A stretch of DNA of 64,000 bases from Candidatus Woesebacteria bacterium RIFCSPHIGHO2_02_FULL_42_20 (GTDB lineage Bacteria > Patescibacteriota > Microgenomatia > UBA8517): NCBI GenBank assembly GCA_001792535.1, contig MGGS01000008.1:11016-75015 (forward strand). The letters run 5' to 3'. Positions 36,084 through 56,250 of this stretch are shown here, one piece after another. The first letter of the stretch is position 1; every line of letters starts with the position of its first letter. Below the pieces are notes generated by a model. That model was not told the origin of the DNA, did no database searches, and saw only the letters and a list, made by a program, of their open reading frames with translations. Made by a program: the position numbers and the translations under genes.

Positions 36084-36145
36084 ACAGGTAACTACCAGTC
36101 TGTAGTATAATTACCCTTAATTTCTGTTGATTTCCTGGCATTACT

Positions 36146-37054: not shown

Positions 37055-37060
37055 CGTTTT

Positions 37061-38398: not shown

Positions 38399-38400
38399 AA

Positions 38401-40232: not shown

Positions 40233-41125
40233 AAATCATTGATTTTATAGTATTTACAGGTGGTCCAAGAGCATATGCCCCAAACAGGCTCAGGAAAGAA
40301 GCTAAAAAAAATAACATAATTTTTCGTGCTTATCTTTATAAATATTTAAACATCAAACTAAATGGAGCTCCCCAAAACTATATTTTTTCGTATAAGGGCA
40401 GAGAACTTCCTCCAGCCAAGGGTGTCTTTTTGCGTGCCCTGGGGGAAATGGCGGAGTATAATCCTTATAAATATTTCCTAATAGATTGGTTCGAATCAAA
40501 AAGTGCAAAGGTGATTAATTCGGCATCTTTTAAAAAGTGGCCGTCGTTAGATAAAACATCACAACATTTGGTGTATTTAAAAAACGATATTCCTTTCATT
40601 AATTCAGCTGTCTTCGGCTCCCAGGAATCTGCCACTGCGTGGGCAAACCCAAGTAGGTTTCCGTTTATTGTTAAAAGTAATGTTGGAAGTTGCGGCACCG
40701 AAGTTTATAAAATAAAAAGCAGACGCGCCTTGAAAAGGCTACTAAAACCTTTCAATAAAAGGACAGTCAAGGGATTGCTTTTTCAGGAATTTTTGCCCGG
40801 TGGTGAAGACCTTAGAGTAATTGTATTAAATGGCAAGGTACTTGGTGCAATGAAAAGAATTGCGAGTAAAGGCAACTACCTGACTAACTATTCGCGGGGC
40901 GGAAGCGTTGAAAATTATGATTTAACAGGGGATGCTAGCGCTTCGAAAATTGCACTAAAAGTAACCGATACATTTTCTCTGGATTATTGTGGGGTGGATT
41001 TGATGAGGGGAAAAGACGGGGGCTGGAAAGTTTTGGAAGTTAATAGGGCTTGTCAGTTTGAAGGTTTTGAAAAAGCAACCGGAGTGAATGTGGCAAAGAA
41101 AGTTTTGGAATTTGCCGTCGGTTAA
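40229..41125 (+). CDS. RimK-family ATP-grasp ligase (paralog 4)
   Basis: FPFIVKSNVGSCGTEVYKI, DLRVIVLNGKVLGAMKRIASKGNYLTNYSRGGS, YCGVDLMRGKDGGWKVLEVNRACQFEGF. Overlaps the previous gene by 4 nt. Confidence 0.65.
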   Translation: MKIIDFIVFTGGPRAYAPNRLRKEAKKNNIIFRAYLYKYLNIKLNGAPQNYIFSYKGRELPPAKGVFLRALGEMAEYNPYKYFLIDWFESKSAKVINSASFKKWPSLDKTSQHLVYLKNDIPFINSAVFGSQESATAWANPSRFPFIVKSNVGSCGTEVYKIKSRRALKRLLKPFNKRTVKGLLFQEFLPGGEDLRVIVLNGKVLGAMKRIASKGNYLTNYSRGGSVENYDLTGDASASKIALKVTDTFSLDYCGVDLMRGKDGGWKVLEVNRACQFEGFEKATGVNVAKKVLEFAVG

Positions 41126-41366: not shown

Positions 41367-41396
41367 GGGACTTGAGTGCATCGATGCACTCAAGTC
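41367..41396. repeat. Perfect 30-bp palindrome GGACTTGAGTGCATCGATGCACTCAAGTCC
   Basis: Read directly. It lies in the intergenic region between the ATP-grasp operon and rplL. Confidence 0.9.
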
Positions 41397-41643
41397 CGAA
41401 GCCCAACGACCAGGATTATTTTCTATTCAGGAGATGTTACCCGGATGGAAAGTGGCCGGACCGTTCAGGATATCGCACTCAGAAAGGGCGTGATGGCCGT
41501 GCTACAAAAGGGCAGGGGTCTTGGAGTCCTGATCAATATTGTTAAGCAGGCCTTAGGCCTGCTGTAGTTTCTCTTTCTTGTCCCAACCCGTCAGGGGTTA
41601 TATTTAGAAGTGTCTTTCTATATTATTTAACCCCTGACAATTT

Positions 41644-42102
41644 TTACTTCAGCTCGACTGTGGCACCTGCCGCTTTAAGCTTATCCGCAGCGGATTTCGC
41701 ATCCTCGGCCTTAGCGTCTTTCAAAATTTCTACCGGAACCTGTTCCGTCATGTCTTTAGCCTCTTTAAGACCCCAGTTCTGATTGACTTCCCGGAGTGCT
41801 TTAATAACCGCGATTTTATTGGCTCCTGCAGCTGTCATGACAACAGTCTGATTTGCACCCGCGGCGGACTCAGGTGCGCTAGGGGTTTCACCCGCTGCCG
41901 CGCCTTGCCCCGCTGGTGCCGCGACAGCGGCAACTTGTGGGGTCACTCCCAATTTATCCTGGAGAGCCTCGACTAATTCGGACAATTCCAAAACAGTAAG
42001 TTTGCTTACTTCGTCTACCAGTTTTTCGACTTTGCTTGATAGTTTTTTAGATCCTGCATGCGCAGGCATGTCTTTCTTTGGTTCGTCTGCCATAGATTTC
42101 AC
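41644..42102 (-). CDS. rplL: 50S ribosomal protein L7/L12 (with N-terminal extension and long Ala/Gly hinge)
   Basis: LTVLELSELVEALQDKLGV, and a C-terminal KIAVIKALREV...GLKEAKDM...AAGATVELK. Confidence 0.85.
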   Translation of the reverse strand: MKSMADEPKKDMPAHAGSKKLSSKVEKLVDEVSKLTVLELSELVEALQDKLGVTPQVAAVAAPAGQGAAAGETPSAPESAAGANQTVVMTAAGANKIAVIKALREVNQNWGLKEAKDMTEQVPVEILKDAKAEDAKSAADKLKAAGATVELK

Positions 42103-42638
42103 CCCCTTTTACCGGCTTCACTTAATACAAAAATTAGCTTTTGCATATTTGCATTTAACACACTTACTAATCCGTATTCTGGTGCCATCAAGTTTCCAAG
42201 CACCTGGCCTAATAAGACATCTTTTCCCGGAAGAGTTGAAATTTTAACCAAACTTTCGCTGTCTTGGAATTTTCCCTCAATCACTCCGACTTTAAACTTC
42301 GGAAGCGGTTCGCCGGTTACACTGACGGATTCCTTAGCGAATTTACCCAATATCTGGATAGGGGAGACCGGGTCGGTGCCCGACGTGATAACTGCTGTCT
42401 GGCCGGTCAAAACTGTGTCTGCTAAAGTCTCTTTTGGAAGTTTGGCATCCTCTGCAGCCAATTTAAACAAAGTATTTTTGACAACAAGCATTTTGGAGTT
42501 GCTTTCTTTAAACCTTTTTTTAAGGTCCTGCTGGGCCTTGACGGTCAGCCCCGAAAAGTCAACCAACACGACCGACTTAGCGTTTGCTAATTCATCGCTT
42601 AATTTCTTGACAAAAACCGGTTTGTCTTTCTTGTTCAT
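42099..42638 (-). CDS. rplJ: 50S ribosomal protein L10
   Basis: KSVVLVDFSGLTVKAQQDLKKRFKE... Start placed at MNKKDKPVF. Overlaps rplL by 4 nt. Confidence 0.85.
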   Translation of the reverse strand: MNKKDKPVFVKKLSDELANAKSVVLVDFSGLTVKAQQDLKKRFKESNSKMLVVKNTLFKLAAEDAKLPKETLADTVLTGQTAVITSGTDPVSPIQILGKFAKESVSVTGEPLPKFKVGVIEGKFQDSESLVKISTLPGKDVLLGQVLGNLMAPEYGLVSVLNANMQKLIFVLSEAGKRG

Positions 42639-42722
42639 AAAAAACCAAAAAACGCGCTTCGAGGCGCGTAAAAATATCTGCCTCGGCAAGACTTATTTTT
42701 ATGCTTGCTGTCTTAGGACAAA

Positions 42723-43217
42723 ATGAATTATATAGTCAAATTAATGTGTAATCAAGACATGAAATTAACCGGGGAACAGAGGCAAAAATTTGACCGTTTC
42801 GTTCGCAAAATCTATCCGTGTGTAATTGCGGTTTATCTGCATGGCTCTCGGGTTAAAGGATATTCTATTTCAACAAGCGATACGGATGTTGCCGTTGTGG
42901 TTGATAAAAAGCATGACATTCTAAGGAGAGAGCTCGAAATGATGTCTGAAGTGGGAAGTAATTTACCATTTTCCAATTCCGACGTGAGAGTCGTGGACGA
43001 AAGTAGCTCAAAAATTTTTTTGCGGAGTATAATCAAAGACTCCAGCGTTCTATATAAAAGAAGTGAGTTAGACAGGATTCGCTTTGAAGTTGGGGCTATG
43101 AGCAAGTTTTACGACCAAGGGTACATACGCGAGATTTATAAGTATTTTTTATATAAACAGATTAAGGAGGATAAATATGATCGTGGACAAAGTGACCTTA
43201 ACCAGGCTCTTGGATAA
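42723..43217 (+). CDS. MNT-type nucleotidyltransferase (antitoxin of HepT/MNT module)
   Basis: LHGSRVKGYSISTSDTDVAVVV is the GS...D.D NTase motif. Confidence 0.65.
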   Translation: MNYIVKLMCNQDMKLTGEQRQKFDRFVRKIYPCVIAVYLHGSRVKGYSISTSDTDVAVVVDKKHDILRRELEMMSEVGSNLPFSNSDVRVVDESSSKIFLRSIIKDSSVLYKRSELDRIRFEVGAMSKFYDQGYIREIYKYFLYKQIKEDKYDRGQSDLNQALG

Positions 43218-43602
43218 ACTTAAGCATAAACTGGCCAAGCTCGAGACAATGGAATTTGGCCTGGATGAAATTCGAGAGGACGAAGATATACAGGGTTTGG
43301 TAGATAGAAGGCTGCAGGTTGCTATTGAATCTTGTATTGATATGGTGACCATGGTTATCGCTGCGCTTTCGCTTAAGCGGCAAGACGAAGCTGCAGATGT
43401 TTTTCGCGAATTAGCACGTGCTAATATTATCTCAAAGAAACTAAGCGAAAAATTAGTAGACGCTTGTGGTTTGCGTAACGTTTTGGTTCATGAATGCGTC
43501 GACGTCGATTACAATGTTGTCTACAAGACTAAAAATGAGGATTTAGATAATTTGCGAGAGTTTGCAAAAGCGGTATCAAAGCTACTCGAAAAGGATAAAT
43601 GA
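43177..43602 (+). CDS. HepT-like (DUF86) toxin, RNase
   Basis: GLRNVLVHECVDVDYNVVY is the Rx4HxY motif. The 5' end overlaps the MNT gene. Confidence 0.75.
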   Translation: MIVDKVTLTRLLDKLKHKLAKLETMEFGLDEIREDEDIQGLVDRRLQVAIESCIDMVTMVIAALSLKRQDEAADVFRELARANIISKKLSEKLVDACGLRNVLVHECVDVDYNVVYKTKNEDLDNLREFAKAVSKLLEKDK

Positions 43603-43648
43603 AGGCTGGTCAGTTGCAAGGATGAAATATAAAGTATAGAATAACGAC

Positions 43649-44128
43649 ATGGTAGATATGGTTGGTGAAGCATTACCTCAGGTTGAGCAGGCACCCCGCG
43701 TTGGTTTGGCGGAAAGAGCTGTTGGATTGGGCGGACCAGTCGCGGACAGAGCTTCGAAGGTCTGGGATGCTGTTATAAAAGGTGGGAGAGCTGCATTAGA
43801 CGAATTAATTGAAGCACCTCTTAGAGCTAAAGTGGGGTTGTCAGTCGTGCTTGCTGAAACAACTAATCTTATTTTAGCTAAAGCCGCTTTTGCCGAAGGC
43901 CTAAGCGGACAGGTTTTAGAGCAAGCTAAAGATTTGGCTCAAATGCAGGACGCAGTGATATTGGCAGGTGCGTTGGTGGGCGGTTTGATAGGTGGTGGTA
44001 TTGGCTCGGTGGCAGGCAAAGGCAAGTCTGGTTTTGCATTAGGAGCCGTTGCAGGAGCGGGTTTAGCAGCTGCAGCACGCGATGGAATGCCGATTATTAT
44101 TGATACAGCTAAAAGGATGGGGGGATAA
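43649..44128 (+). CDS. Hypothetical Gly/Ala-rich (glycine-zipper-like) protein, GC-rich
   Basis: AGALVGGLIGGGIGSVAGKGKSGFALGAVAGAGLAAAA. The region 43.6-46.3 kb has higher GC than the flanks. Confidence 0.35.
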   Translation: MVDMVGEALPQVEQAPRVGLAERAVGLGGPVADRASKVWDAVIKGGRAALDELIEAPLRAKVGLSVVLAETTNLILAKAAFAEGLSGQVLEQAKDLAQMQDAVILAGALVGGLIGGGIGSVAGKGKSGFALGAVAGAGLAAAARDGMPIIIDTAKRMGG

Positions 44129-44133
44129 AGACT

Positions 44134-44442
44134 ATGAATAAAGTAGCCGATGTTGTTTCAAAATTTAGTTTCAAAAAGAAAGAGGCCGGTTATTCTCAAG
44201 AAGAAATAGATAAAACAATTTTTATTGCTGCCAACGTTACAATGGAGCGAGTAATCAATAGTTTGCAAGATCAAAAGAGCGGAATTACAGATAAGGTGAA
44301 AGACTTAGGTAAAAGCGTTTTGGGAGATCCTAAAAACGATGCAAAATGGCAGGAAGCGCAAGCTTTAGTTGTTAATGACAAAGGCGAAAGTCTTGAAACT
44401 GTAATTGCAGGCGAACTTGAGGATTTTTTGGGGAAGCTCTGA
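44134..44442 (+). CDS. Hypothetical protein
   Basis: 102-aa ORF lying 6 bp after the previous gene. Confidence 0.3.
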   Translation: MNKVADVVSKFSFKKKEAGYSQEEIDKTIFIAANVTMERVINSLQDQKSGITDKVKDLGKSVLGDPKNDAKWQEAQALVVNDKGESLETVIAGELEDFLGKL

Positions 44443-44445
44443 AGT

Positions 44446-45477
44446 TTACTTTCTAGTCAATCTTCCCACTATACTGGTTGGCTGAAGTCTTCGTTCAATA
44501 GTTTGCTTTGTTTCTAGTGGAATACCTAGCCTTTCTCGAACATCGGTTGGTAAGGGAACATCAAGCGTTCCAGCCGAAGGCTCCGTAGAAAACACAGTCC
44601 TTGATTGATACAGCTGACCTTCTTCTTTTGGGTCAATAACCGGCCTGAGTATAACTTGGCCATCCCATTTAGCCTTCTTGTCATTAGCATCACGCATGCT
44701 GACAGTTGTGGCCTCGTATACTTTCATATTGTCGGCGCCGTTTGGCCCTGTGCCGATTGCGACTACTGAACTAGCTTTGACATCATCTGTATTGAAAAAT
44801 ATTGGAACATCTCTACCGGTAAATTTACCTACCCCTTTAAATATTATTGGCGTGCCGTCTTTTGTTACAGCCTCCATGGTGAGGTTTTCTCTTCTGGCTT
44901 CTGGACTGATTACGTTTGCAGCACCTCTTGCTTCGGCATCTTCAGCGACTTGGCGTAAGCCAGGCGGCAGGGAAGCTTTTTGCGCTTCCCATTGGGCGTG
45001 AAGTTCAGCTTCTATTCTTTGTTGTTCAGTTCTGGCAGTCTTACCGGCCTGAAGTGAAGTGTTGACTGTTATTGCTCGACGAGCTGTGGCATGCCTTCTT
45101 GCGAAGTCTAGTACGCCTTTGTCGGTTGGTTCCACAGAAGCCCCAGCCGCAGCTTCCGTTCCGTAAGTTTGGATATTTTGGCTAAGGTTTTGTTCAAGCA
45201 TTTGTATTCGTTCTTCTTCTGTCACGTTTTGTGGAGTTCTCCAGCCCTTTACGTATTGAAGTCTTTGCGCCAGAGAACCACGTTCAGCCGCGGTTTTAGC
45301 TCGAAGAGCTGTTGGTGTTCCCTCATAAGCCATTCTCAATTTTGCGACGGGCTGCCTTAAAAAGACAATCTTTACAGGAGCTTCTACTAACGCCCCGCCG
45401 GGCTGTCTTATTTCTGTGGCAACCGGCACGGCAGCGTTGCCCCCTAGTTCCACTGGTGTTTCTCCGGGTCCGCTCAT
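44446..45477 (-). CDS. Hypothetical protein (343 aa), GC-rich
   Basis: Long ORF. Its start overlaps the upstream 180-aa ORF by 4 nt. Confidence 0.4.
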   Translation of the reverse strand: MSGPGETPVELGGNAAVPVATEIRQPGGALVEAPVKIVFLRQPVAKLRMAYEGTPTALRAKTAAERGSLAQRLQYVKGWRTPQNVTEEERIQMLEQNLSQNIQTYGTEAAAGASVEPTDKGVLDFARRHATARRAITVNTSLQAGKTARTEQQRIEAELHAQWEAQKASLPPGLRQVAEDAEARGAANVISPEARRENLTMEAVTKDGTPIIFKGVGKFTGRDVPIFFNTDDVKASSVVAIGTGPNGADNMKVYEATTVSMRDANDKKAKWDGQVILRPVIDPKEEGQLYQSRTVFSTEPSAGTLDVPLPTDVRERLGIPLETKQTIERRLQPTSIVGRLTRK

Positions 45478-46016
45478 TGTTCTATAGATACCAAATTGGG
45501 TACGCTAGTCAAATTCACTAAGTCTTCGGGAATACCTATGGCCACCAGCTCAATTTCTTTTTCATTGGGGTTCTCAGTTGGTTTTAAATCAAAAGAAAAA
45601 GCAAGTGCTTGGCCTTCGGTGTCCTTTAGTTGTTCGAATGCGGTGTTAAGCTTAAGCTCAAAAGCTTCAACTCCCTGTTTGTCTAGCGGACTAGTTAGCA
45701 TCTCCAAGCCGGTTTTGAGAACTAAAAGCGCGCTATCGTAGTCGTCAGTCGCAAAGAAATATTCTTTGGTCAGCTCACTAAAAACAGCCTGGGCACCAGC
45801 TTTTGTTTGGGTTGCCAAATTTGGCTCGTAAAGAAGGTCACTTAATGTTCGTGCGCGTTCAATCGGATCAAAATTTGGGTGGGGGTTCTCAATTTTTCCC
45901 TGAAGTTGTTTGACCCTTTTTACGACTCGGCCAACAAACGGCTCGGCTTCCTTTTGATTAGCGCTTTCTATTCGATATACCTCTATTCCAAAGCTTTTAC
46001 GCATTTCAGGTGTCAT
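45474..46016 (-). CDS. Hypothetical protein (180 aa)
   Basis: Forms a translationally coupled pair with the 343-aa ORF. Confidence 0.4.
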   Translation of the reverse strand: MTPEMRKSFGIEVYRIESANQKEAEPFVGRVVKRVKQLQGKIENPHPNFDPIERARTLSDLLYEPNLATQTKAGAQAVFSELTKEYFFATDDYDSALLVLKTGLEMLTSPLDKQGVEAFELKLNTAFEQLKDTEGQALAFSFDLKPTENPNEKEIELVAIGIPEDLVNLTSVPNLVSIEQ

Positions 46017-46439
46017 ACAAGTTGAAAACTATTATATACTATAAATCGTAGGTCTATCTAGGAGGTGATTATATGATACATGGTCCAGAGGAAATAGAAG
46101 TTTTGTCTCCACTCGATGAATTTTTAGAGTCGTTGAGCGAGGAAGATGCAGCGGATGTCAATGAAGCCGTTTTAGGAGCCAGAGGGCGCGGTGTATCGGA
46201 TAAGGAGATATTTGCTGCCCTGACTGGGGAAGTTGAAGCTGGTAGATCTCCCGTAGGCGAGCCGGAACCAACCGCTTAGTTTAATTTCTCAAGTACTATT
46301 TTGTAGTCCGCGCTTAATATGTGATAGTTTATATCAATTGTCTTTCCCACAATACAATAACTTCAAGAGTTTTTGGGCCTAAAGGCTCTTATTGTGTCGG
46401 CTTGGCTGGAGGATATTGGGCTGCCTGTTGCTCTTCGGT

Positions 46440-46690
46440 TGCGGTCCCGTATAATCGCTCATGTAGTTTTTTAGCAGAATTGAACTGCCAGTTGACGCGA
46501 GCTTAATAAGATTGCTGCATATAGCACGTCTTGGCCGTTTTTTCACCCGATTTGCGAATCAGGTCGACCTTGACGGAAGCGCGCTCGAGAGCATTAAACA
46601 CTTCATTCTTTTAGGTAGCTGTTTTGTAGTTGGCTCAGGCGCGCCCGAATTTTCAGTCATTGACGTATTTTAGCAGACTAAGTCTCTTGC
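46440..46690. repeat. Degenerate, internally deleted direct-repeat copy of the 5' region of gene 50779..51303 (partner at ~50950..51300)
   Basis: Shared blocks: gagcttaataagattgctgcatat(a/g)gcacgtcttggccgtttt; ttcacccgatttgcgaatcaggtcgaccttgacggaagcgcgctcgag; gttttgtagttggctcag; cattga(c/t)a(t/c)attttagca. All are in the same orientation. Confidence 0.8.
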
Positions 46691-46755
46691 AGAATTTTGG
46701 CACTTTCTACTTCAAGTAGTCTTGCAAAGTCAGTGAGTGAGTCATGATAAGACTC

Positions 46756-48276
46756 TTACTTTTTGTCAACTCTGCTAATCAAATCAGCCATAGATCGATC
46801 TTTGGCAGCCTTTAAGTATTCGATTTCTCTAGACCAAATATCTACACTGCAAACCGATACATCTTCATAACCAGATTCTTTAAGGATATTGCCAACTCTG
46901 TCTATTTGTTCATCACCATGAACAATTACTCTTCTAAGCGATCCATGAAGGGAAGTTGGTACGTATTTAACAACATTTTGTTGGTGTTTAAAAGTGGGCA
47001 TGTGTCTGTCGGCAATTTCTATGATCAGTGGGCGAGCTCGAATATTTTTTACTCTTTCCCCTGGGTTCATAGCATAAAGAACAAAATTATAAAGATCGTT
47101 TGGGTCGTCTTTGTGAAGACTTACAGATTGTAAATATGTACCTTTGGAGTAAGTGGCTTTTCTTGGTATAAGTCGGCCACTTTTTAATATTTTATCAAGT
47201 AGACCAAAAAAAGTAAGGTATCCTTCTTCAATTTCAGCGTGATCTAATTTTCTAAAAATTCCACCCCTACCAATATTATGCTGGTATCTTTTTAATCCAC
47301 CTTCAGCTTCTAGTAACTGCATTTGTAGGCTATCAGCGATTTGTTCATCGCCGTTTTCCCTCGCTAGTTCGACAGCGTGCTTAATAATATCCATATCTGA
47401 AGGTAAGATGGGTTCACCATCAGTAACTACCCCTTTTTGATAGCCTTGTTTCCTTAGCCTTAACACTGCAAGTTGAGTGGGTGTCATGTTGGCAATACTA
47501 TTAAGATCTGTATTTTCTAACCACTCTTGCTCTGATTTGTATTTCAAACATATTTCTGCAAGGTCTATTACGGATAAACCTCTTATGTCTGCTATCTGGC
47601 CTATCGAGTGTTGATTCTCAACTAAGCGTTCAGTTACACCGTCTTCTTCCAGTGCTGTGAAAACTCTGTTTAGCCTTTCTTTTGTTGTAGCAATTTGGTC
47701 CGGAGACATCTGTTGCGCCTGATCGTTGATCGTATCTATTCGTTTGGCTGTCTTAGTATCTATAAAATGCATGTTTATTTTTTGAGCGAACGCTCCACTT
47801 TCGTCATAGATATGGATACCAATATCTGGATGCCTTAAGTATCGGCTTAAGCCAAAAGCGTCTAATAAAGGGTTGGAATAATTTTGCTGTATTACTACAC
47901 CTTCAACTCGTGCAACTTGGCCTTCGGCGAGTACATCATTAGCAAAAAACGCCTCGATTCTATCTTGTGACTTTTCTGGCACAACTGCAATAAATGGGGC
48001 TATGCCTGCAATCCACTCTTCAATCTTTACTATGTTGCTTGGTGGGAGTTCTTGATTTTTATCAATTCTAGGTCTGTGGAATCTGGTGTAGATATTAGGA
48101 TTATTTGTAACAAAAACATGCTGCTCGTCATGAATGAAAGGTAAAAGCATTAACCTTTTAGTTTCAAGACCCAATCTCGAAAGGGCTTCATCTGCACCTA
48201 ACCTAGCTTCCTCTGGTATAATTTCAGCACTAACAGCATCCGTAAGTTCTGATACTTCTGTGTTTATCTCAACCAT
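46756..48276 (-). CDS. Hypothetical 506-aa protein, translationally coupled downstream of the HepT/MNT pair
   Basis: Long ORF with no recognisable motif. Its start overlaps the HepT stop by 8 nt. Confidence 0.5.
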   Translation of the reverse strand: MVEINTEVSELTDAVSAEIIPEEARLGADEALSRLGLETKRLMLLPFIHDEQHVFVTNNPNIYTRFHRPRIDKNQELPPSNIVKIEEWIAGIAPFIAVVPEKSQDRIEAFFANDVLAEGQVARVEGVVIQQNYSNPLLDAFGLSRYLRHPDIGIHIYDESGAFAQKINMHFIDTKTAKRIDTINDQAQQMSPDQIATTKERLNRVFTALEEDGVTERLVENQHSIGQIADIRGLSVIDLAEICLKYKSEQEWLENTDLNSIANMTPTQLAVLRLRKQGYQKGVVTDGEPILPSDMDIIKHAVELARENGDEQIADSLQMQLLEAEGGLKRYQHNIGRGGIFRKLDHAEIEEGYLTFFGLLDKILKSGRLIPRKATYSKGTYLQSVSLHKDDPNDLYNFVLYAMNPGERVKNIRARPLIIEIADRHMPTFKHQQNVVKYVPTSLHGSLRRVIVHGDEQIDRVGNILKESGYEDVSVCSVDIWSREIEYLKAAKDRSMADLISRVDKK

Positions 48277-48706
48277 GGCAACTAGTATATATTTTCTTAA
48301 GCACAGACTTTAGATACTTGGGGACTTGGGTTAAGGCCATTTCGATTGATTCATAAATTTTCTTGGGATCAATTTCATCATATTCGTGCGCGAGTGCGTT
48401 ACGTAGGCCACCAGATTTTGCCAGTTCATTTGCGAGTTTTTCTGATACTATTCCTCGCTTTCCAAGCTCAGTAAACGATTGTGTGTAGTTGTTAGGTACA
48501 AACCCACATCGCTCGCTTAAGAGGTGATAATTAATATCAATCATTTTTCCCACAATTCGCTCCAGAAGTCTTTCAATAATAAGTTGTGATGTGGCGCTTT
48601 TTAAGTACTGTTTGTAGCTCTTCGGCTGATTTTTTGCCAAAATGGCCAGGTCGACTTCGATTAGCTTTGCTTTTCTAGTAATGATTTGGATATCAACCGG
48701 CGACAT
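48269..48706 (-). CDS. HepT-like (DUF86) toxin
   Basis: GGLRNALAHEYDEIDPKKIY is the Rx4HxY motif. Confidence 0.8.
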   Translation of the reverse strand: MSPVDIQIITRKAKLIEVDLAILAKNQPKSYKQYLKSATSQLIIERLLERIVGKMIDINYHLLSERCGFVPNNYTQSFTELGKRGIVSEKLANELAKSGGLRNALAHEYDEIDPKKIYESIEMALTQVPKYLKSVLKKIYTSCHG

Positions 48707-49094
48707 ATTTATTCAGATTTGTGAGAGTTACTTTTTTCTCCATTTCGAGATAGGGTAGATAATTGTTATATTTCTTGAATGCAGTCAGTTTTAAACTTGT
48801 GTAAATTTTCCCGCTTCCTGAGATAAGTTTGCTTTCAGTGGTAACTGTGAACAACAACAAGGGGTCAGCGTTGGCTAAGTTCGTAATATCCAGTTTGTCT
48901 GCCGGTTTAATGACCTTTCCCAGATCCGTATATAAGTTAAGCAGATCAAAACTGACGCCCGGCTTTGGTAATACTGCAATGTCTATATCACTGGCTGAGT
49001 GGGTTTTGCCACTAACTTGGGATCCATGCAGAAGTATAAGCACGAGATTATACTTTTTGCGGATTTTATCAATAGCCGACTTGTTTAACTTCAC
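48693..49094 (-). CDS. MNT-type nucleotidyltransferase antitoxin
   Basis: LLHGSQVSGKTHSASDIDIAVL. Overlaps the HepT gene by 14 nt. Confidence 0.75.
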   Translation of the reverse strand: MKLNKSAIDKIRKKYNLVLILLHGSQVSGKTHSASDIDIAVLPKPGVSFDLLNLYTDLGKVIKPADKLDITNLANADPLLLFTVTTESKLISGSGKIYTSLKLTAFKKYNNYLPYLEMEKKVTLTNLNKYVAG

Positions 49095-49326
49095 ACTCCG
49101 ATTATAGCATTTTTGTTTACTGGACAGAGTCAGGATTTTGCCTGTGAGGGGGTGATTAATATGCCAGGAGAATCAGGAGCAGATTTCCCAGGGACAGGTG
49201 TGAGTGTTGATCGGCATGGTGGACAGGGTAAACTCTGAGCATCATCCGTTATTGGCAACTATATTCTTTGGCGGGTGTTGACAAAACTTGCCGTTTCGAT
49301 TACTGTAGAAATGAGGTAGTATTTCT

Positions 49327-49917
49327 ATGAAGAAAATCGAAATGGTGTGGCGGGAGTTGCTTTATTGGAGTATTGAAAAAGGCGAGCGCGTTTTTGTCCA
49401 AAAGGATTTGGCGGCTAAGTTTAATTTTTCCACAAGCACCATTTTTCAAGCTTTAAAGCCGACACGGGCTATGGGTGCAGCACGGGTAACCGGTAGAAAC
49501 TTTACGCTTGAAGATCCTGAAAAGCTTCTTTATTATTGGGCAAGTGTTCGCAACCTCGCCAATGACACAATTTTTGAGGGTCGGGTGGATTTACCTCTAC
49601 TGGAGATTGAAGGCATGATGCCTGCTTTAAGTATCTTTGCCGGCTATAGTACTGCTCGGTTCATATTAAAAGAAGCTCCGGCTGATTACGATAAAGTTTT
49701 TGTCTACGCAAAGAGCAAGGAAGATCTTGCTTCACGATTTGATTTTGTTGAAGGTAAACCCAATTTGTATATCCTTAAGTCTGATCCTTTTATCAGCAGT
49801 TATGGAGGTAAAACTACATTAGCCCAGACATTTGTTGATATCTGGAATTTAAATGATTGGTATGCCAAAGAATTTACACAAGCATTGAAAGACAGAATCG
49901 ATGACCTATTACACTGA
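49327..49917 (+). CDS. Winged-HTH protein, putative AbiEi-like antitoxin/regulator
   Basis: N-terminal wHTH-like segment ELLYWSIEKGERVFVQKDLAAKFNFSTSTIFQALK followed by an unknown C-terminal domain. Confidence 0.4.
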   Translation: MKKIEMVWRELLYWSIEKGERVFVQKDLAAKFNFSTSTIFQALKPTRAMGAARVTGRNFTLEDPEKLLYYWASVRNLANDTIFEGRVDLPLLEIEGMMPALSIFAGYSTARFILKEAPADYDKVFVYAKSKEDLASRFDFVEGKPNLYILKSDPFISSYGGKTTLAQTFVDIWNLNDWYAKEFTQALKDRIDDLLH

Positions 49918-50512
49918 TATTATCACCGGCAAAAGTTGGGAACTACTAAAAAAGCTTAAAAAAAGCTATGAGTTTATCCTGATTGGAGGCTGGGCAGTTT
50001 ATCTTTACACCCGGGTATTAAAATCAAAAGATATTGATGTTGTGGTCGAGTATGAGCAATTGGAAAGGTTAAAGCAGGAGTTTGAGCTAAGTAAAAATGA
50101 ACGGCTGAAAAAATATGAAGCAAGAGTGGAGGAATTGCAAATTGACATATACCTTCCTTTTTACTCCAATCCTGGTATCCCTGCTGAAAAGATTGAAGAA
50201 TATACAGTATTGGTAGAAGGTTTTCGTCTGCCGGCTGTTGAATTACTTGCAATATTAAAGCAAAAAGCCTTTGTAGAGCGGGTAAGGAGTACTAAAGGCA
50301 GGAAAGATTTGGTAGATTTGGTTTCGTTATTCAGATTGCCCGGATTTAAGTGGTCCAAATATAAAGCGATGGTGGAAAAATACCAACTAACCGAGCAAGC
50401 TCAAAAAGTTTCTGGGCTAATTGATGAAACCAAAGAAATAAATGAACTTGATTTAAATGTCCATAAATTTTTAAGGATAAAAAAACAATTCGGGTTTTTT
50501 AAAGTGGACTGA
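49901..50512 (+). CDS. Nucleotidyltransferase-fold protein, putative AbiEii-like toxin
   Basis: ILIGGWAVYLYTRVLKSKDIDVVVE (GG...DID NTase motif). Overlaps the upstream wHTH gene by 17 nt. Confidence 0.4.
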   Translation: MTYYTDIITGKSWELLKKLKKSYEFILIGGWAVYLYTRVLKSKDIDVVVEYEQLERLKQEFELSKNERLKKYEARVEELQIDIYLPFYSNPGIPAEKIEEYTVLVEGFRLPAVELLAILKQKAFVERVRSTKGRKDLVDLVSLFRLPGFKWSKYKAMVEKYQLTEQAQKVSGLIDETKEINELDLNVHKFLRIKKQFGFFKVD

Positions 50513-50778
50513 AAGTGAGTTACTGACCTGAATTATTTGTGCCCCACTTGGTTTAAGGTTTCTCCGAGAACTTTATTAGATATTTGTATCTACTTTCGTC
50601 AACGTCCTTCGAGGCTACGGCGAGTTCATCAGGCACACCGTTTGGAAATCCGGAGTCGACTGCCAAAAAACTGAAGTGGTGTAACCCTGTTTTTTGGCCG
50701 GGTATCGGATTCCAGTTATCAATAACCCCTATTTCCCCATAGGGTAAAGGATTATCGGTTGGTATGACAATGATACCC

Positions 50779-51303
50779 TCAGTCCTTGATGTTTTCCGGC
50801 TCGGTTAGACCTGAAATAAAATCAGAAAATGGCTCTCCCGTATTGTAAGGCTCAGCTGGCAGTCCTATCTGTTCCGGTTTCAAAGATCTGGTTACCCTGT
50901 TTCCACCTGAGTCGGTAAGCGAAAGGTTGAACTGTTCACCAAGTGTAAGCATTTGTTTTAGAACAGCCAGTTGATGCGAGCTTAATAAGATTGCTGCATA
51001 TGGCACGTCTTGGCCGTTTTCGGTTACTGTCGCGGTCCCGCTTTGTAGTTTTTCGACCTCTTTTTCACCCGATTTGCGAATCAGGTCGACCTTGACGGAA
51101 GCGCGCTCGAGTGCAGCAAATACTTCATTTAGTGGATTTGACTCTGTGGTTGGGGTTGGTTCGTCTTGCGACCTTAAGCCATAAAAACCCTCTTTTAGGT
51201 AGATGTTTTGTAGTTGGCTCAGATGCGGCCGAGTTTTCTGCCATTGATACATTTTAGCAAAGATCCTTATTCCTTTATCAAGGGAGAATGAGATTGTTAC
51301 CAA
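50779..51303 (-). CDS. Hypothetical protein (174 aa); its 5' third is the source of the repeat copy at 46.4-46.7 kb
   Basis: ORF with no recognisable motif. Overlaps the upstream 454-aa gene by 7 nt. Confidence 0.4.
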   Translation of the reverse strand: MVTISFSLDKGIRIFAKMYQWQKTRPHLSQLQNIYLKEGFYGLRSQDEPTPTTESNPLNEVFAALERASVKVDLIRKSGEKEVEKLQSGTATVTENGQDVPYAAILLSSHQLAVLKQMLTLGEQFNLSLTDSGGNRVTRSLKPEQIGLPAEPYNTGEPFSDFISGLTEPENIKD

Positions 51304-52661
51304 CTGACTCCGCCTTCTTTATCATAATCCTTTCTGGTCAACCCTGAATTTATTGTCAAATATGAAGGAAGCTCTCTGGCAAGAGAGACAGCTTCTTTAA
51401 TTGCTTTCTTATTCCAGCCACAATCTTTCAAAATTGTTCTGATGTTTTCGATTATAATATTAAAAAGATTCGGGCCGGCCAAAGCCCGCACAAACGCTTG
51501 CCCAAAATAATTTTCCGCATATTTTTGTCCTTGTAACCACCTAACCAATTTTGCCCAATCTTCCGGAAGTTCCGGTCTTTTGATTAAATTTTCCAGAGGC
51601 TCATTTGCCCGCGCCCACTCATAGATAATCGGTTTTAGTATTCTTAATTCTTTAAGTTGTTCTGTTATCGATAAACCTCGATCCGCTGGAGCTGAGTAAA
51701 CTACACGTACTTGATCAGTCAACCTTATATCTTTTCCCATTAAACCACTTGTAACAATGTCGAAACTGACATCTTCGACTTGGAGGCCGCCATCCATAAT
51801 TGCGGTTTGAGCTGCCAACGCGTCTCGGCCAGCTGATAATGTGCCGCCTCCTGGGGACCACTTTGCTCCGGGCGAGTAGGTGTGTAAATTGGCAGTAGCC
51901 CTAACTAAACCCGCAATCTTTTTGTCTGGCAAAATATATCCATTTTCATCCATCACAACCGGTTCCAGTTTTGCTCCGACTGCAAAACACCCGGTTGCTT
52001 CGGCAATTTCCATCATTCGCAACAGTCCGTTACCTGTAAAGTTATCACCTTGTTTACCGGTGTATAACCTATTGTCAGCGCCAGGAGTCAGATAATATTT
52101 GTGTACGGTGTTTTCTCGTTTAGCAGAATCAACAAAGGCTTGGAAACCAGTTCTGAGGGCATTGGCAGTTCCAGAGTTAACGTCAACGTCTTCTTGATGA
52201 ATAAAGAAGAAATTAATAGTGCTCTTTCTAAGTTCAGCTAGATTTGCTTCTTGTGTGTATTGTGAATCCGTGTATAGTCTTCCACCCTTTTCGTAGAGAT
52301 TAACAGTAGTTGCAGCTTCAACTTGAAAGTCGTTTGCAAACTGTTGATCAGCTTCGTCACCGCCACGGTTAAGAACAATTGCGATATCTGCTCCGTCAAT
52401 TTTTTCTTTATCAACACACTCTTTAATTTGGCGGTTAAGTATGGGCAATCCTGTCTGAAGAAGGTGAGAAGCTCTCCTCGCCGGGATAATAACTGCAAGT
52501 CTGTTATTATCGGCATCGGGTAGTGTCTCTTTGTACTTTCGGATGTTATCTAACAGCCCAAGTGCTTTTTCACTCGGGAGCGGATGTTCTTTCTGGGAAT
52601 AGTCTCGAACAGGCGTTATATCAAGTCTAGGCGGTATTGTTTGAGGCTCGAAATCTGTCAT
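51297..52661 (-). CDS. Hypothetical 454-aa protein
   Basis: Long ORF. AVIIPARRAS near the N-terminus is vaguely glycosyltransferase-like, but this is not verified. Confidence 0.4.
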   Translation of the reverse strand: MTDFEPQTIPPRLDITPVRDYSQKEHPLPSEKALGLLDNIRKYKETLPDADNNRLAVIIPARRASHLLQTGLPILNRQIKECVDKEKIDGADIAIVLNRGGDEADQQFANDFQVEAATTVNLYEKGGRLYTDSQYTQEANLAELRKSTINFFFIHQEDVDVNSGTANALRTGFQAFVDSAKRENTVHKYYLTPGADNRLYTGKQGDNFTGNGLLRMMEIAEATGCFAVGAKLEPVVMDENGYILPDKKIAGLVRATANLHTYSPGAKWSPGGGTLSAGRDALAAQTAIMDGGLQVEDVSFDIVTSGLMGKDIRLTDQVRVVYSAPADRGLSITEQLKELRILKPIIYEWARANEPLENLIKRPELPEDWAKLVRWLQGQKYAENYFGQAFVRALAGPNLFNIIIENIRTILKDCGWNKKAIKEAVSLARELPSYLTINSGLTRKDYDKEGGVSW

Positions 52662-52667
52662 TAACTA

Positions 52668-54176
52668 ATGATATCAAAGATTGACAAGGAAACACTTGTA
52701 GTACTACTATTAATATGTAATACAGTGAAACAGACCAAGATACTATTCTTCTTTTTATTAGCTTTTCTTTTTGTTTTTGCTGTTCCCGTTTTTGCCCAAC
52801 TGCCGCCAGACAGCCAAGGCCGTGCCGTAAATGATGTTGTAACTGAGTCGATAATACCCCCGTATCCATATCCAACATCCGTACCTTCCGGTAATCCGAT
52901 TTTCGGTCAGGATCACTCCTACTCTGTCGTCATGCGGGGTAACGGGGAAGCGGTTGTGACCTTGAAAGTTACCTTCAGCAACGTAACGACCTCGAGCATG
53001 AATAAGGTTTACCTGCGCGTGCCTAAGGTTGAGCCAAGGGAAGTCATGGTCTATCAGATTTATAAACCTGAATTTTGCCTTCGATATCTCCCAAATGTTT
53101 TGACACCCGAGCTTCCGGTAGACTATTACTACAACTACTACAACAACCTTAACTGTGAACAGTGGAGTAGTCCTGACTATTTCGGCGGTTACCTTGGGGA
53201 CGCTACTTTTTACAAAGCCAGAACCGATTATAGCGGTGACACATTAACAGTTTATCTGCCCAAGTCCGTGCGGCCCGATGGGTCCGGTTCGTTTTTTGTC
53301 TATTATCGGGCTTTTGGCTATGCGAAGAAAAACATCGTCGGGGCCTACAATTACACGTTTGAAACTCTTAAGGCTAATGAGTCGATTCGAAGCATGACTG
53401 TCGGGATAAGCGTGGACTCGGACCTTTTCCTTAAAGACGCCAAGGGCGGAGTCAACTACAGATTTGAAGAGGCAAGTCTCGCGCCTTTGTCCGACGCGGC
53501 ATACGGAGTGGAGCTAAGGAACCCAAAGGTGACAAGTTTTGTGAGTCAGATAGGGAGTGGTACGGTGACAAAGACAGCCTCAAATCTGGCCGCCCTGGAG
53601 TCTTATTCGGTCAAAGGCGTATATGCCGACAGACAAATTAAGCTCTATGGCAAGGAAATCTTGTGGGGGTTGCTGGTAGTGGTGCTATTTCTGGCTGGTT
53701 TTGTTTTCTTTGTCCGCGCAGTTTACAGGAGATTGCAATTACGGAGAGCCAATGTTGAGGCGGCTGCACAAGCGGCGAAACCGAGTGCTAAAGCGGGTGT
53801 CGGTAAAGCCGGTATGTTGACGGGCCAGGATTATGTCAAAACGGGGTTGGTTGTGGCAGTCGTTACCTTTTTCTCACCGCTACTTATGATGGCTTATACT
53901 TTTGCTCTGGTTCTCCTGACTACCTCGAGTAATTTCATTTACTTTGGCAGCAATTATTTGGGGCCGATACTTTTTATAATCATTTTGATTTTGTCGATAG
54001 CCGTCTACGGGGTGTTGCTCTTTTTCCCGGCTTTATATGTCGGGCTAAAGCGTGGGCTTCATTGGGCATTGGCGACTTTTTTGATGACTGTTTTCTGGAC
54101 AGCTTTTTGTGTTCTGATAATAGTAGTCATGATATCGGTCTTCAATTATAATCCTCGTGGACCATATCTTTATTAG
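52668..54176 (+). CDS. Surface/membrane protein: N-terminal signal-anchor, ~330-aa extracellular domain, C-terminal 5-6 TM helices
   Basis: Hydrophobic N-terminus (ILFFFLLAFLFVFAVPVFA), a Tyr/Asn-rich ectodomain and a long C-terminal hydrophobic block. Confidence 0.45.
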   Translation: MISKIDKETLVVLLLICNTVKQTKILFFFLLAFLFVFAVPVFAQLPPDSQGRAVNDVVTESIIPPYPYPTSVPSGNPIFGQDHSYSVVMRGNGEAVVTLKVTFSNVTTSSMNKVYLRVPKVEPREVMVYQIYKPEFCLRYLPNVLTPELPVDYYYNYYNNLNCEQWSSPDYFGGYLGDATFYKARTDYSGDTLTVYLPKSVRPDGSGSFFVYYRAFGYAKKNIVGAYNYTFETLKANESIRSMTVGISVDSDLFLKDAKGGVNYRFEEASLAPLSDAAYGVELRNPKVTSFVSQIGSGTVTKTASNLAALESYSVKGVYADRQIKLYGKEILWGLLVVVLFLAGFVFFVRAVYRRLQLRRANVEAAAQAAKPSAKAGVGKAGMLTGQDYVKTGLVVAVVTFFSPLLMMAYTFALVLLTTSSNFIYFGSNYLGPILFIIILILSIAVYGVLLFFPALYVGLKRGLHWALATFLMTVFWTAFCVLIIVVMISVFNYNPRGPYLY

Positions 54177-54991
54177 GAAAGAGCAAGTTTGACCGAAGGG
54201 CTCATTGTCGAGCAAATGTAAGCTTTTATTATTTGTTTGCTAGTTAGCGTTTCCAGGATCGCGGTAATGTTTTCGTCCAGTTCTTTCTTCTGCATGGAAA
54301 GTTTCCCAACAGTTGTGTGGATGATGGGCGCTGATTTTTCAGTTTTTAAAGTAATTGAGTTGGCTGAAAATTTGCTGATTTCTTTTTCGTTTTTGATTAG
54401 CGTCCCGTTTTTGGGATTTGGCATCAAACCCCTTGGACCCAAAAGTTTTGCAAACGGGACCAATTTTGGCATCATGTCGCCCGTTGCTAAAAGTACATCA
54501 AAATCTATCCTTCCGTCTTTAAGTTTTTTTATTGTTTCGTCCCCGGCAACCTCAACCCTTTTTACTTTGCCGGTAGAGTGGGGCAGTGTGATGTTTGCGC
54601 TTAAGTTATCCTTCCGCACAACTAGGTGAAGTTCGACAGTTGAATCAAATTTAGAATAGGAAATTTCTTTTAAAAGAGCGACCGCGTCATCTAATTTATA
54701 AAGTCTGGCAGGATCCACTTTAGATTTGGAGTCCTTGTATTTTTTGCTTCTGACTTTTAGCCTTGTTTTACGTTTTTTGGCTTCCTCGTTTCCCGAAGTT
54801 TGCTCGGAGTGGAGTTCGCTTTCTGGCGGCAAGTCGGACTGTACGGCAACTACCCGTTGTCCGCCTTTAAGGCCCGGAATGTGTACTTTGGTGGCTTTCT
54901 CTTCTTTTGCTTTTTTTCGTTTTTCATAAAGCTCTTTGCCGGAAAGTTTTTCCTCAACGCCGGCAACAAAAGCTGTCTTAGTTTTACCCAT
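54173..54991 (-). CDS. rplA: 50S ribosomal protein L1 with ~80-aa Lys-rich N-terminal extension
   Basis: The core matches L1 (KYKDSKSKVDPARLYKLDDAVALLKE..., GDMMPKLVPFAKLLGPRGLMPNPKNGT). The frame stays open for ~80 codons upstream and overlaps the rplK stop by 8 nt. Confidence 0.8.
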   Translation of the reverse strand: MGKTKTAFVAGVEEKLSGKELYEKRKKAKEEKATKVHIPGLKGGQRVVAVQSDLPPESELHSEQTSGNEEAKKRKTRLKVRSKKYKDSKSKVDPARLYKLDDAVALLKEISYSKFDSTVELHLVVRKDNLSANITLPHSTGKVKRVEVAGDETIKKLKDGRIDFDVLLATGDMMPKLVPFAKLLGPRGLMPNPKNGTLIKNEKEISKFSANSITLKTEKSAPIIHTTVGKLSMQKKELDENITAILETLTSKQIIKAYICSTMSPSVKLALS

Positions 54992-55409
54992 TGATTTTTA
55001 CTCCCATCGACCTGGCAGTCCCGATAACAATTTTGAGTGCGGCTTCCACGTTGTCGGTGTTAAGATCGCGCATTTTTTCTTTAGCGATTTCTTCCGCCTG
55101 GGAAACGGAAAGAGTTCCCGCAATATCCCGGTTCGGTACTCCGGAACCTTTTTGAATACCCAGCTTCTTTTTGATCATATCGGCGACCGGGGCAAGCTTT
55201 ATCTCAAAATCGAAGCTTCTGTCTTCGTAAATAGTTATGACAGCAGGGACTGTGTTCCCTTTCATGTCCTTTGTCTTGTCGTTATAGGCCTTGACAAAAT
55301 CCATGATTGCCACGCCGTGCTGACCCAAGGCAGGTCCCAGAGGCTGCGCCGGAGTGGCTTCGCCCGCAGGAAGGTTAATTTTAAGAACTGTTTTAACTTT
55401 TTTTGCCAT
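54984..55409 (-). CDS. rplK: 50S ribosomal protein L11
   Basis: MAKKVKTVLKINLPAGEATPAQPLGPALGQHGVAIMDFVKAYN. Confidence 0.9.
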   Translation of the reverse strand: MAKKVKTVLKINLPAGEATPAQPLGPALGQHGVAIMDFVKAYNDKTKDMKGNTVPAVITIYEDRSFDFEIKLAPVADMIKKKLGIQKGSGVPNRDIAGTLSVSQAEEIAKEKMRDLNTDNVEAALKIVIGTARSMGVKING

Positions 55410-55424
55410 TTTATTAATAAAAAT

Positions 55425-56045
55425 TTAAACCTTTTGAATTTGCAAGAAATCAAGTTCCACCGGCGTTTCTCGGCCAAAGATACTTACCAATACTTTGATC
55501 CTGCCTTTCTCTTCGTCAATTTCGTGAATAGAACCCAAAAAATCAGCGAAAGGCCCGTCAGTAATTTTAACCGCTTCGCCGACACTGAATTTAGTTTTAA
55601 ATCTTGGCGCAGGAGCGGAGACAAACTTTTGAATATTTTTCACTTCTTCAATTGAAAGCGGCGTAGGTTTATTGCTGGATCCGACGAAGCCTGTTATCCC
55701 TGGCGTTGTTCGCACGGCGAGCCATGTCGGGTCGTCCAATTCCATTTTGATTAACATATAGCCCGGAAATATTTTTTCTTTGACTGTCGACTTTTTTCCG
55801 GAGCGGATGACTACTCTGTCTTGTGTCGGGATTAATACTTCAAGCACTTTGCTGACCAGATTCATGGTCTCTACCCGCTGGCGCAGTGTCTCGGCGATTC
55901 TTGCCTCGTGGCCGCTGGTTGTGTGGACCACAAACCATTTTGCGTTTTTGTTTTGCTCGTCGCTTATTTTGATGTGCCCCGGAATTTTTTTGGACCCAGT
56001 GCCGCGCTCCGATACTCCGGAATCATGTATTTGTGTATTGTCCAT
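55425..56045 (-). CDS. nusG: Transcription termination/antitermination factor NusG (N-terminal ~30-aa extension)
   Basis: KWFVVHTTSGHE NGN domain and a C-terminal KOW (FSVGEAVKITDGPFADFLGSIHEID). Confidence 0.85.
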   Translation of the reverse strand: MDNTQIHDSGVSERGTGSKKIPGHIKISDEQNKNAKWFVVHTTSGHEARIAETLRQRVETMNLVSKVLEVLIPTQDRVVIRSGKKSTVKEKIFPGYMLIKMELDDPTWLAVRTTPGITGFVGSSNKPTPLSIEEVKNIQKFVSAPAPRFKTKFSVGEAVKITDGPFADFLGSIHEIDEEKGRIKVLVSIFGRETPVELDFLQIQKV

Positions 56046-56046
56046 G

Positions 56047-56250
56047 TTATTTGTAGATGATTAATTCTAATAGTTTTGTGAACAGGTAGTCCAGCCCTCC
56101 TAAGTAAAGCCCTACAATAAGAGAAACAGCTACCACAATGAGTGTGAGTTTTGTTACCTCATCTCGGGTTGGCCACGTGACTTTTGAAATCTCACTTTTT
56201 ACCTCCGACAGGAAGCCTAGGGTGTTTTTTATCGGGTGACTTGGTTTCAC
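56047..56250 (-). CDS. secE: Preprotein translocase subunit SecE
   Basis: FLSEVKSEISKVTWPTRDEV, a single TM helix, and its position upstream of nusG. Confidence 0.75.
   Translation of the reverse strand: MKPSHPIKNTLGFLSEVKSEISKVTWPTRDEVTKLTLIVVAVSLIVGLYLGGLDYLFTKLLELIIYK

Follow-up and report, generated by a model that had tools for sequence, protein, structure and literature searches.

How can secE-nusG-rplKAJL hold some 11.5 kb of other genes between rplA and rplJ? The question is raised by a 64,000-nt stretch of a groundwater Candidatus Woesebacteria genome (hereafter the window, to which all positions refer unless a locus is named), in which a prediction made from the sequence alone had placed an accessory island between these two ribosomal-protein genes. 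The species studied is called species A here, and its relatives are labelled B to E. The split of the junction by ~11.5 kb was verified, with the list of open reading frames (ORFs) and Pfam matches giving the following gene order.

56047-56250, minus strand: secE (ORF list; SecE Pfam match on the identical gene)
55425-56045, minus strand: nusG (Pfam NusG/KOW)
54984-55409, minus strand: rplK (Pfam Ribosomal_L11_N/L11)
54173-54991, minus strand: rplA (Pfam Ribosomal_L1), closing the L11-operon side of the split
42099-42638, minus strand: rplJ (Pfam Ribosomal_L10), ATG start, the ORF reaching back to a TTG at 42689
41644-42102, minus strand: rplL (Pfam Ribosomal_L12_N and Ribosomal_L12), forming the L10-operon side with rplJ

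The rplJ ATG is separated from the rplA stop codon by 11,534 nt (42639-54172). An identical arrangement was present in NCBI, ENA, JGI and Logan contigs from many samples at 99.95-100% nucleotide identity; the split is real and fixed in the sampled population. The genome is metagenome-derived and its NCBI scaffold contains an N gap at 45229-45480, which would suit an assembly or binning artefact joining two unrelated contigs. However, the same continuous sequence was obtained from many samples and by four pipelines independently, several of them without Ns, and species B and E carry the same split, each on a single contig, so that the chance of an artefact is negligible.

We favour, with a probability of roughly 0.78, the reading that the 11.5 kb form a long-lived variable region between the L11 (rplK-rplA) and L10 (rplJ-rplL) transcription units. 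The split would have arisen in an ancestor of the Woesebacteria subclade comprising species A-E. The proposed skeleton consists of a membrane protein gene convergent with rplA, an h180-family gene with an Ala/Glu-rich partner, h102 and h159, accompanied in most species by an MNT-HepT pair standing back-to-back with the rplJ promoter. At least two variable slots would be present, one extending from mem502 to the h180 module (~46.3-52.7 kb in the window) and one beside the rplJ leader. We infer turnover by local gain, loss, duplication and decay with an occasional insertion sequence (IS) insertion, and exchange by homologous recombination in the ribosomal genes on either side may be a further route. 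The genes on which the comparison with relatives depends are listed from the rplA side.

52668-54176, plus strand: mem502, a membrane protein by its transmembrane (TM) profile, convergent with rplA, the stop codons overlapping by 4 nt
48693-49094, minus strand: MNT2 (Pfam), first gene of the overlapping operon MNT2-HepT2-h506
48269-48706, minus strand: HepT2 (Pfam), forming a type VII toxin-antitoxin (TA) pair with MNT2
46756-48276, minus strand: h506, a 506-aa orphan overlapping HepT2 by 8 nt (48269-48276)
46073-46279, plus strand: h68, skeleton module gene
45474-46016, minus strand: h180, skeleton module gene
44446-45477, minus strand: h343, skeleton module gene
44134-44442, plus strand: h102, small skeleton gene
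43649-44128, plus strand: h159, small skeleton gene
43177-43602, plus strand: HepT1 (Pfam), forming a type VII TA pair with MNT1
42759-43217, plus strand: MNT1 (Pfam), divergent from rplJ; 42759 is the likely start of an ORF that runs from 42723

The rplA/rplJ junction in related genomes

Relatives were gathered through L1 and L10 homolog searches, and their loci carry three-digit L numbers. In distant bacteria, rplA and rplJ were 34-193 nt apart, and in 23 loci of more distant Woesebacteria (L10 42-59% identical) the gap measured ~120-1,500 nt. The flanks of these 23 loci are those of the window, with rpsU, rnhB, secE, nusG, rplK and rplA at one end and rplJ, rplL and ATP-grasp genes at the opposite end, and none has a homolog of the window cargo. 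Small cargo does occur in the gaps: L025 has HicA/HicB, L029 a sugar transferase and L030 a weak 23S_rRNA_IVP-like match, and Pro/Glu-rich proteins are found in others. A metagenome scan with L10 returned no close relatives, the best match being 59% identical. The junction is also split in four related species (B-E); loci of B, D and E are given below with identities to the window proteins.

Species E (GCA_964473415.1), L066, complete, 6.7 kb: membrane protein 66%, HepT1 70%, MNT1 58%; interior unrelated
Species B (GCA_001793085.1), L057 and L071 on one contig, complete, 11,659 nt: membrane protein 65%, h180-family gene and partner, h102 40%, h159 37%
Strain B' (same L1 as B), L059, incomplete: membrane protein 65%; the 382-aa gene as in B, then MvdD-like ATP-grasp and PIN genes
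Species D, L063, rplJ side only, >10 kb: MNT2 59%, h68 60%, h180 70%, h343 64%, h102-like gene 34%, HepT1 36%, MNT1 65%

Species B, C and E have mem502 orthologs of 459, 471 and 473 aa (65%, 63% and 66% identical, respectively) with the same convergent 4-nt overlap, and the family has long invariant stretches across species. At the opposite end, MNT1-HepT1 orthologs hold the same rplJ-side position in species E and D; in species B, where MNT1-HepT1 is not present, the h159 and h102 orthologs directly adjoin rplJ. Homologs of the h180 family occur in B (165 aa, 31% identical) and E (163 aa, 23%), each followed by an Ala/Glu-rich partner. No similarity between h343 and the species E partner was detectable beyond an N-terminal MSGPGET/MAGPDET motif. 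The identities of the skeleton genes resemble those of the adjacent rplA and rplJ (62-74%).

The interior differs. In the window it holds MNT2-HepT2-h506, a DUF6036 nucleotidyltransferase pair and a protein with a fold of glycosyltransferase family 2 (GT2). Species B has an unassigned 382-aa gene, LanB-N/LanB-C/LanC-like genes and MazE, the lanthipeptide-type set comprising Lant_dehydr_N (875 aa), Lant_dehydr_C (284 aa) and a LanC-like protein (598 aa; L056/L057 13525-19050, L071 1068-6593). Species D is syntenic with the window in the order MNT2, HepT2 remnant, AAA ATPase, h68, h180, h343, h102, HepT1, MNT1, with the ATPase at the h506 position and HepT2 decayed. Both MNT1 and HepT2 appear fragmented in this species, and an IS200-like Y1 transposase TnpA (L063 8970-9368, minus strand; 126.8 bits) lies between the MNT1 remnants and rplJ.

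Because the relatives share the split and the skeleton but differ in cargo, the locus is better described as an old variable region than as a fresh insertion. The whole element is not absent from close relatives, as species B-E share the bracket and skeleton genes at the locus and only the slot content is unique. The original prediction of an accessory island inside the cluster therefore holds for the part of the content that is accessory and species-specific, but a discrete insert was not found, given the native composition described below, the lack of mobility genes and the shared skeleton. Likewise, the prediction had proposed to compare gene content between rplA and rplJ across related genomes, where a common ancestral content would speak against an island: slot cargo proved to differ, whereas split and skeleton are held in common.

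The shared genes could also belong to an ordinary, stable gene order of this lineage, in which rplKA and rplJL have been parted by chromosomal genes and no special plasticity exists. The conservation of the skeleton, which appears to be under purifying selection, the 64-66% identity of mem502 between species and the native composition would all fit. On the other hand, the interior differs among A, B, B' (L059), D and E, including one strain pair, and the region may be as short as 6.7 kb or as long as 11.7 kb. There are also an IS200 element, debris of pseudogenes and a HepT2 in decay, and small cargo at the junction varies even among distant relatives. A stable order is accordingly improbable.

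Expression signals upstream of rplJ

An insertion at this site had been expected to separate L10 and L12 from their upstream promoters and leader. This premise proved unnecessary, as the signals all lie within ~120 nt of the rplJ ATG.

42637-42755, minus strand: rplJ expression unit, made up of promoter-like site, L10 leader and attenuator hairpin, within ~120 nt of the ATG
42755-42727, minus strand: promoter-like TTGATT-17-TATAAT (sequence match)
42735-42637, minus strand: L10 leader (sub-threshold RF00557 covariance-model match), ending at the rplJ ATG
42669-42652, minus strand: attenuator hairpin with a T-run, terminator-like

The succession of -35 box, -10 box, leader and hairpin can be aligned with that of 18 related loci, which bears out the companion expectation that rplJ expression signals would be preserved. 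RF00557 scored above threshold at the orthologous sites of L005 (45.7 bits) and L064 (44.6 bits), and in an alignment of 19 sequences 5/6 pairs of the central leader helix showed compensatory changes. The likely MNT1 ATG at 42759, which is conserved in species E, is 3 nt from the rplJ -35 box. The rplJ signals are present, and from their sequence they are predicted to work.

Since these signals belong to rplJ itself, the rplA/rplJ junction would be a boundary between two operons, where DNA inserted upstream of the L10 promoter could leave both units undisturbed. The site would thus tolerate DNA through rplJ's own promoter, autoregulatory L10 leader and attenuator, and the promoter-like site and leader carried by rplJ would explain why tolerance is found exactly where two autoregulated operons meet. 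The same division is known from E. coli, where L11 (PL11) and L10 (PL10) are separate autoregulated units of rplKAJL-rpoBC and an L10-(L7/L12)4-binding leader (Rfam RF00557) lies upstream of rplJ. The window resembles this arrangement in having a promoter-like site, leader and attenuator directly upstream of rplJ. Unlike in E. coli, the boundary holds 11.5 kb, part of it on the opposite strand, rpoBC does not follow rplL, and the leader is compact (~100 nt) and under the Rfam threshold.

Another gap of the cluster, between nusG and rplK, varies as well in related Woesebacteria, measuring 0.9-1.8 kb in L016 (7261-8182), L035 (6332-8093) and L005 (8536-9550) and containing a 91-aa ORF in species E (L066 2270-2545). 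The cluster may thus have a second boundary that is permissive.

Several points weigh against a long-lived variable region with intact rplJ signals. In a search of 701 nt, the window leader reached 36.9 bits with RF00557 (E 2.6e-4; threshold 44), and promoter-like matches were not enriched over the region (28 found, 24 expected). The nearest relative has an L1 only 63-64% identical, no intermediates were found, and the order and timing of gains and losses are drawn from five species only; moreover, the rplA side of species D and the strain B' locus were seen only in part. The skeleton could also consist of ordinary core genes of the subclade, in which case the "variable region" would shrink to ~6-7 kb. 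Finally, exchange by recombination is derived from a mosaic in two short contigs only (see below).

Composition, toxin-antitoxin pairs and other cargo

The island had been expected to differ in composition from the core genome, which the analysis contradicted. The GC content was 42.5% within the region and 42.8% outside it, and tetranucleotide z-scores in 3-kb windows ran from -1.3 to +1.8, compared with values of up to +2.3 and +2.8 elsewhere in the 64 kb, making the region indistinguishable from the rest of the window. Several hypothetical genes described as GC-rich do have raised overall GC (h159 50%, h343 48%, h68 50%); however, GC at third codon positions is ordinary (35-39%) and gives no foreign codon signal, since the rise is caused by amino-acid composition and not by foreign codon usage. 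No integrase, recombinase or transposase Pfam domain was found in any of the region's 15 ORFs, no tRNA lies within 20 kb, and tRNA and Rfam scans at gathering thresholds were empty in the region. PHROGs and NCBIfam scans of all unassigned ORFs returned nothing meaningful, and relatives in IMG/VR were not found. No flanking, terminal or att-like repeat was detected; long repeats occur only internally, as pseudogene fragments. These correspond to the ~250-bp direct repeats noted earlier (46482-46675 versus 50961-51259, 86-95% identical), which are present, although the first copy proved to be non-coding debris: a decayed remnant of the h174 5' region, shortened by two deletions, next to a HepT2 fragment. 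Such debris is a sign of past rearrangement.

50779-51303, minus strand: h174, unassigned ORF with a 7-nt overlap with h454; the decayed repeat copy derives from it
46276-46755, minus strand: pseudogene debris, with an h174 5' fragment (46482-46675) and a HepT2 fragment (46276-46350)

These results bear on the idea that a mobile genomic island with cargo for defence or addiction recently entered an intact rplKAJL string in a single event. Such an event would agree with the absence of the region from the 23 loci of more distant Woesebacteria, whose flanks are the same, with TA modules as typical island cargo and with the several orphan genes. Against it stand the native GC and tetranucleotide composition, the lack of integrase, transposase, tRNA, att-like repeat, PHROG matches of note and IMG/VR relatives, and the bracket and skeleton genes, whose orthologs in B, C, D and E have diverged about as far as core genes. 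A recent mobile island is thus largely refuted and very unlikely.

Both predicted HepT/MNT pairs were confirmed, all four proteins scoring above their Pfam gathering thresholds (HepT-like PF01934, 85.1 bits for HepT1 and 75.1 bits for HepT2, cutoff 23.5; MNT PF18765, 50.5 and 56 bits, cutoff 26.9). MNT lies upstream of HepT in both pairs, with overlaps of 41 nt (MNT1/HepT1) and 14 nt (MNT2/HepT2). The nucleotidyltransferase GSx(n)DxD motifs GSRVKGYSISTSDTD and GSQVSGKTHSASDID were read directly from the MNT sequences, and alignment to solved homologs showed the Rx4-6H catalytic motif in both toxins (RNVLVH in HepT1, RNALAH in HepT2). HepT2 matched the Aphanizomenon flos-aquae HEPN toxin 7AE9 (E 7e-23) with RNALAHEY intact and the acceptor Tyr kept. 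HepT1 aligned with Shewanella SO_3166 (PDB relatives 5YEP/6M6U) and reads RNVLVHEC, placing a Cys at the acceptor-Tyr position of Rx4HxY (residue 107 of 141). In solved type VII homologs this Tyr is the residue AMPylated by MNT. The HepT1 orthologs of L066 (species E) and L063 (species D) read HEY and keep the Tyr; the Cys in the window may point to altered or lost antitoxin control. Compared with the known type VII HepT-MNT systems (Shewanella SO_3165/3166, 5YEP/6M6U; A. flos-aquae, 7AE8/7AE9), the window pairs share the upstream, overlapping MNT, the Rx4H HEPN and GSx(n)DxD motifs and, in HepT2, the acceptor Tyr. They differ in the Cys of HepT1 and in the orphan 506-aa gene translationally coupled after HepT2. 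Addiction or stabilisation is the probable role of the TA modules.

The coupling of this 506-aa gene to HepT was likewise confirmed by its 8-nt overlap. A word-seeded search of 5.8 billion clusters found only h506 itself, and it had no PDB match and no IMG/VR relative. Paralogy of h506 and h454 was ruled out (BLASTP E 0.38 or worse). Three further genes count as variable cargo.

51297-52661, minus strand: h454, with a GT-A/GT2-like glycosyltransferase fold
49901-50512, plus strand: NT203, a DUF6036 nucleotidyltransferase
49327-49917, plus strand: wHTH196, putative helix-turn-helix (HTH) partner overlapping NT203 by 17 nt

The wHTH196-NT203 pair had been described as AbiE-like, an assignment that failed. 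NT203 matched DUF6036 (PF19502) at 25.1 bits (cutoff 23.6), with AbiEii (PF08843/DUF1814) below threshold at 16.6 bits (cutoff 22.5). The best match of wHTH196 was a weak one to HTH_Crp_2 (17 bits, cutoff 27), with no AbiEi, NCBIfam, PADLOC or PDB match, and NT203 matched no PADLOC model and nothing in a PDB sequence search. The likeness to AbiE is confined to the two-gene overlap architecture.

For h454, 10 relatives were found among 1.84 billion representatives. AlphaFold2 modelling from the single sequence was unusable (mean predicted local distance difference test, pLDDT, 34.5), and the model discussed here is based on an 8-sequence alignment (pLDDT 80, predicted template modelling score 0.83). 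Foldseek placed hyaluronan synthases at the top (E ~2e-9, probability 1.0), followed by chitin synthases and RmlT, so that the modelled protein is a GT-A fold resembling GT2 synthases. One of eight family members matches PF13641 (1.5e-4), the window protein has no Pfam match, and a PDB sequence search with h454 gave none. The motifs of the window copy are GAD and KLVRW, compared with DAE and Q-x-x-RW in distant relatives, and a 42% identical homolog sits in an unrelated genomic context. The large membrane protein of the original prediction agrees with the TM profile of mem502, in which an N-terminal TM segment, a ~290-aa ectodomain and four C-terminal TM segments can be recognized; Pfam and a PDB profile search gave no match. 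The divergent start codons of h454 and mem502 (52661-52668) are only 6 nt apart, and their promoters must therefore lie within each other's coding sequence.

With this cargo, the locus might serve mainly against phages, with HEPN/MNT, nucleotidyltransferase and effector genes forming a defence island, a reading that partly overlaps with a variable region. It would draw on the two HepT/MNT pairs and one further nucleotidyltransferase pair, on the orphan 506-aa gene translationally coupled to HepT2, and on PADLOC matches (PADLOC-DB 2.0), which are weak only: the MNTs to candidate family PDC-S09 at ~27 bits, and HepT2 to CARF_HEPN at 15 bits. PADLOC found no complete known defence system in the region, however, and its AbiE models had no match; the other cargo consists of a GT2-fold protein and a membrane protein, and sister species hold LanB/LanC and MvdD-like ATP-grasp genes in the slot in place of defence systems. 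We consider a defence island unlikely. Of the defence and addiction cargo originally proposed, the TA modules stand, whereas for defence there are the weak PDC-S09 matches only, alongside a GT2-fold gene and orphans.

Several features were noted around the region. After rplL, where rpoB-rpoC is not present, four RimK-like ATP-grasp genes form a convergent run (~36000-41125); ATP-grasp genes adjoin rplL in most related loci, joined in species B by a GATase and a 7TM transglutaminase. Between these genes and rplL, a perfect 30-nt palindrome (41368-41397; GGACTTGAGTGCATCGATGCACTCAAGTCC) that is unique in the window gives ORFs on both strands the same starting peptide, MHRCTQV. The L1 N-terminus (54725-54991) carries a Lys/Glu-rich extension of ~90 aa, which is common to relatives (proteins of 260-280 aa); protein P0005 is 98% identical to the window L1 over the aligned part, with part of this extension missing.

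Mosaic contigs and parallels with known systems

Two contigs, L041 and L042, combine a species-B/C-like core (nusG 87% and rnhB 60% identical to the window) with a mosaic part (L041 2618-4278). Both are 100% identical to the window from 54358 to the contig ends, over at least 1,031 nt (window 53328-54358). This tract contains the last 185 nt of rplA and 846 nt of mem502, where genuine species B is only ~65% identical. The switch occurs at the following site.

54327-54358, minus strand: 32-nt identity between species A and B within the rplA 3' end; mosaic switch point

The mosaic may reflect recent homologous recombination between species, anchored in rplA. Alternatively, it may be an assembly chimera, as a 32-nt identity could seed a k=31 de Bruijn-graph join. 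In favour of a real recombinant, L041 and L042 end soon after the switch rather than following the abundant species-A path. On the rplJ side, species-A cargo was not seen in a species-B context, an exact look-up of HepT1 giving species-A contexts only (24 longest contigs). An extension of this idea, which we regard as doubtful, is that the rplA/rplJ gap is a dedicated exchange site at which co-occurring species swap cassettes by recombination anchored in ribosomal genes, with MNT1-HepT1 locking the array to an essential promoter. The L041/L042 mosaic would then be an example, the ends of ribosomal marker genes in the Candidate Phyla Radiation (CPR) would be mosaic, and the skeleton genes might have a link to the ribosome. 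If the mosaic itself is true, the rplA 3' end can be recombinant, which matters for marker-gene phylogenies.

The long-lived variable region that we favour would have several consequences. One of the most conserved gene strings of bacteria tolerates kilobases of foreign or variable DNA, and in one CPR lineage this boundary collects TA modules, LanB/LanC and ATP-grasp genes, glycosyltransferase-like genes and orphans. It is an easily located place to mine accessory functions in Woesebacteria, and the contiguity of ribosomal-protein genes should not be assumed when CPR bins are scaffolded or curated.

Literature searches on rplA/rplJ islands, Rv0641/Rv0651 and Woesebacteria TA systems found nothing relevant. 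A possible counterpart is Mycobacterium tuberculosis, where we take mmaA4-mmaA1, lipG and fabD2 to be among the genes between rplK-rplA (Rv0640-0641) and rplJ-rplL (Rv0651-0652). That locus would presumably resemble the window in carrying ~10 kb of non-ribosomal genes between rplA and rplJ across a lineage, an indication that a split of this junction can be stable, and would differ in being a conserved lipid-metabolism cluster rather than a species-variable slot with TA modules. Chromosomal hotspots and plasticity zones with core flanks, familiar from many bacterial pangenomes, offer a second comparison. They share with the region the fixed core flanks, species- or strain-specific cargo, lack of a dedicated integrase, TA modules and IS remnants, and exchange plausibly proceeds through homologous recombination in the flanks. 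Unlike these zones, the region lies inside one of the most conserved bacterial gene strings, belongs to a CPR lineage with small genomes and has a conserved internal skeleton of unassigned genes. Overall, a core-flanked plasticity zone is a known kind of feature, and what is unusual here is its location and its CPR context.

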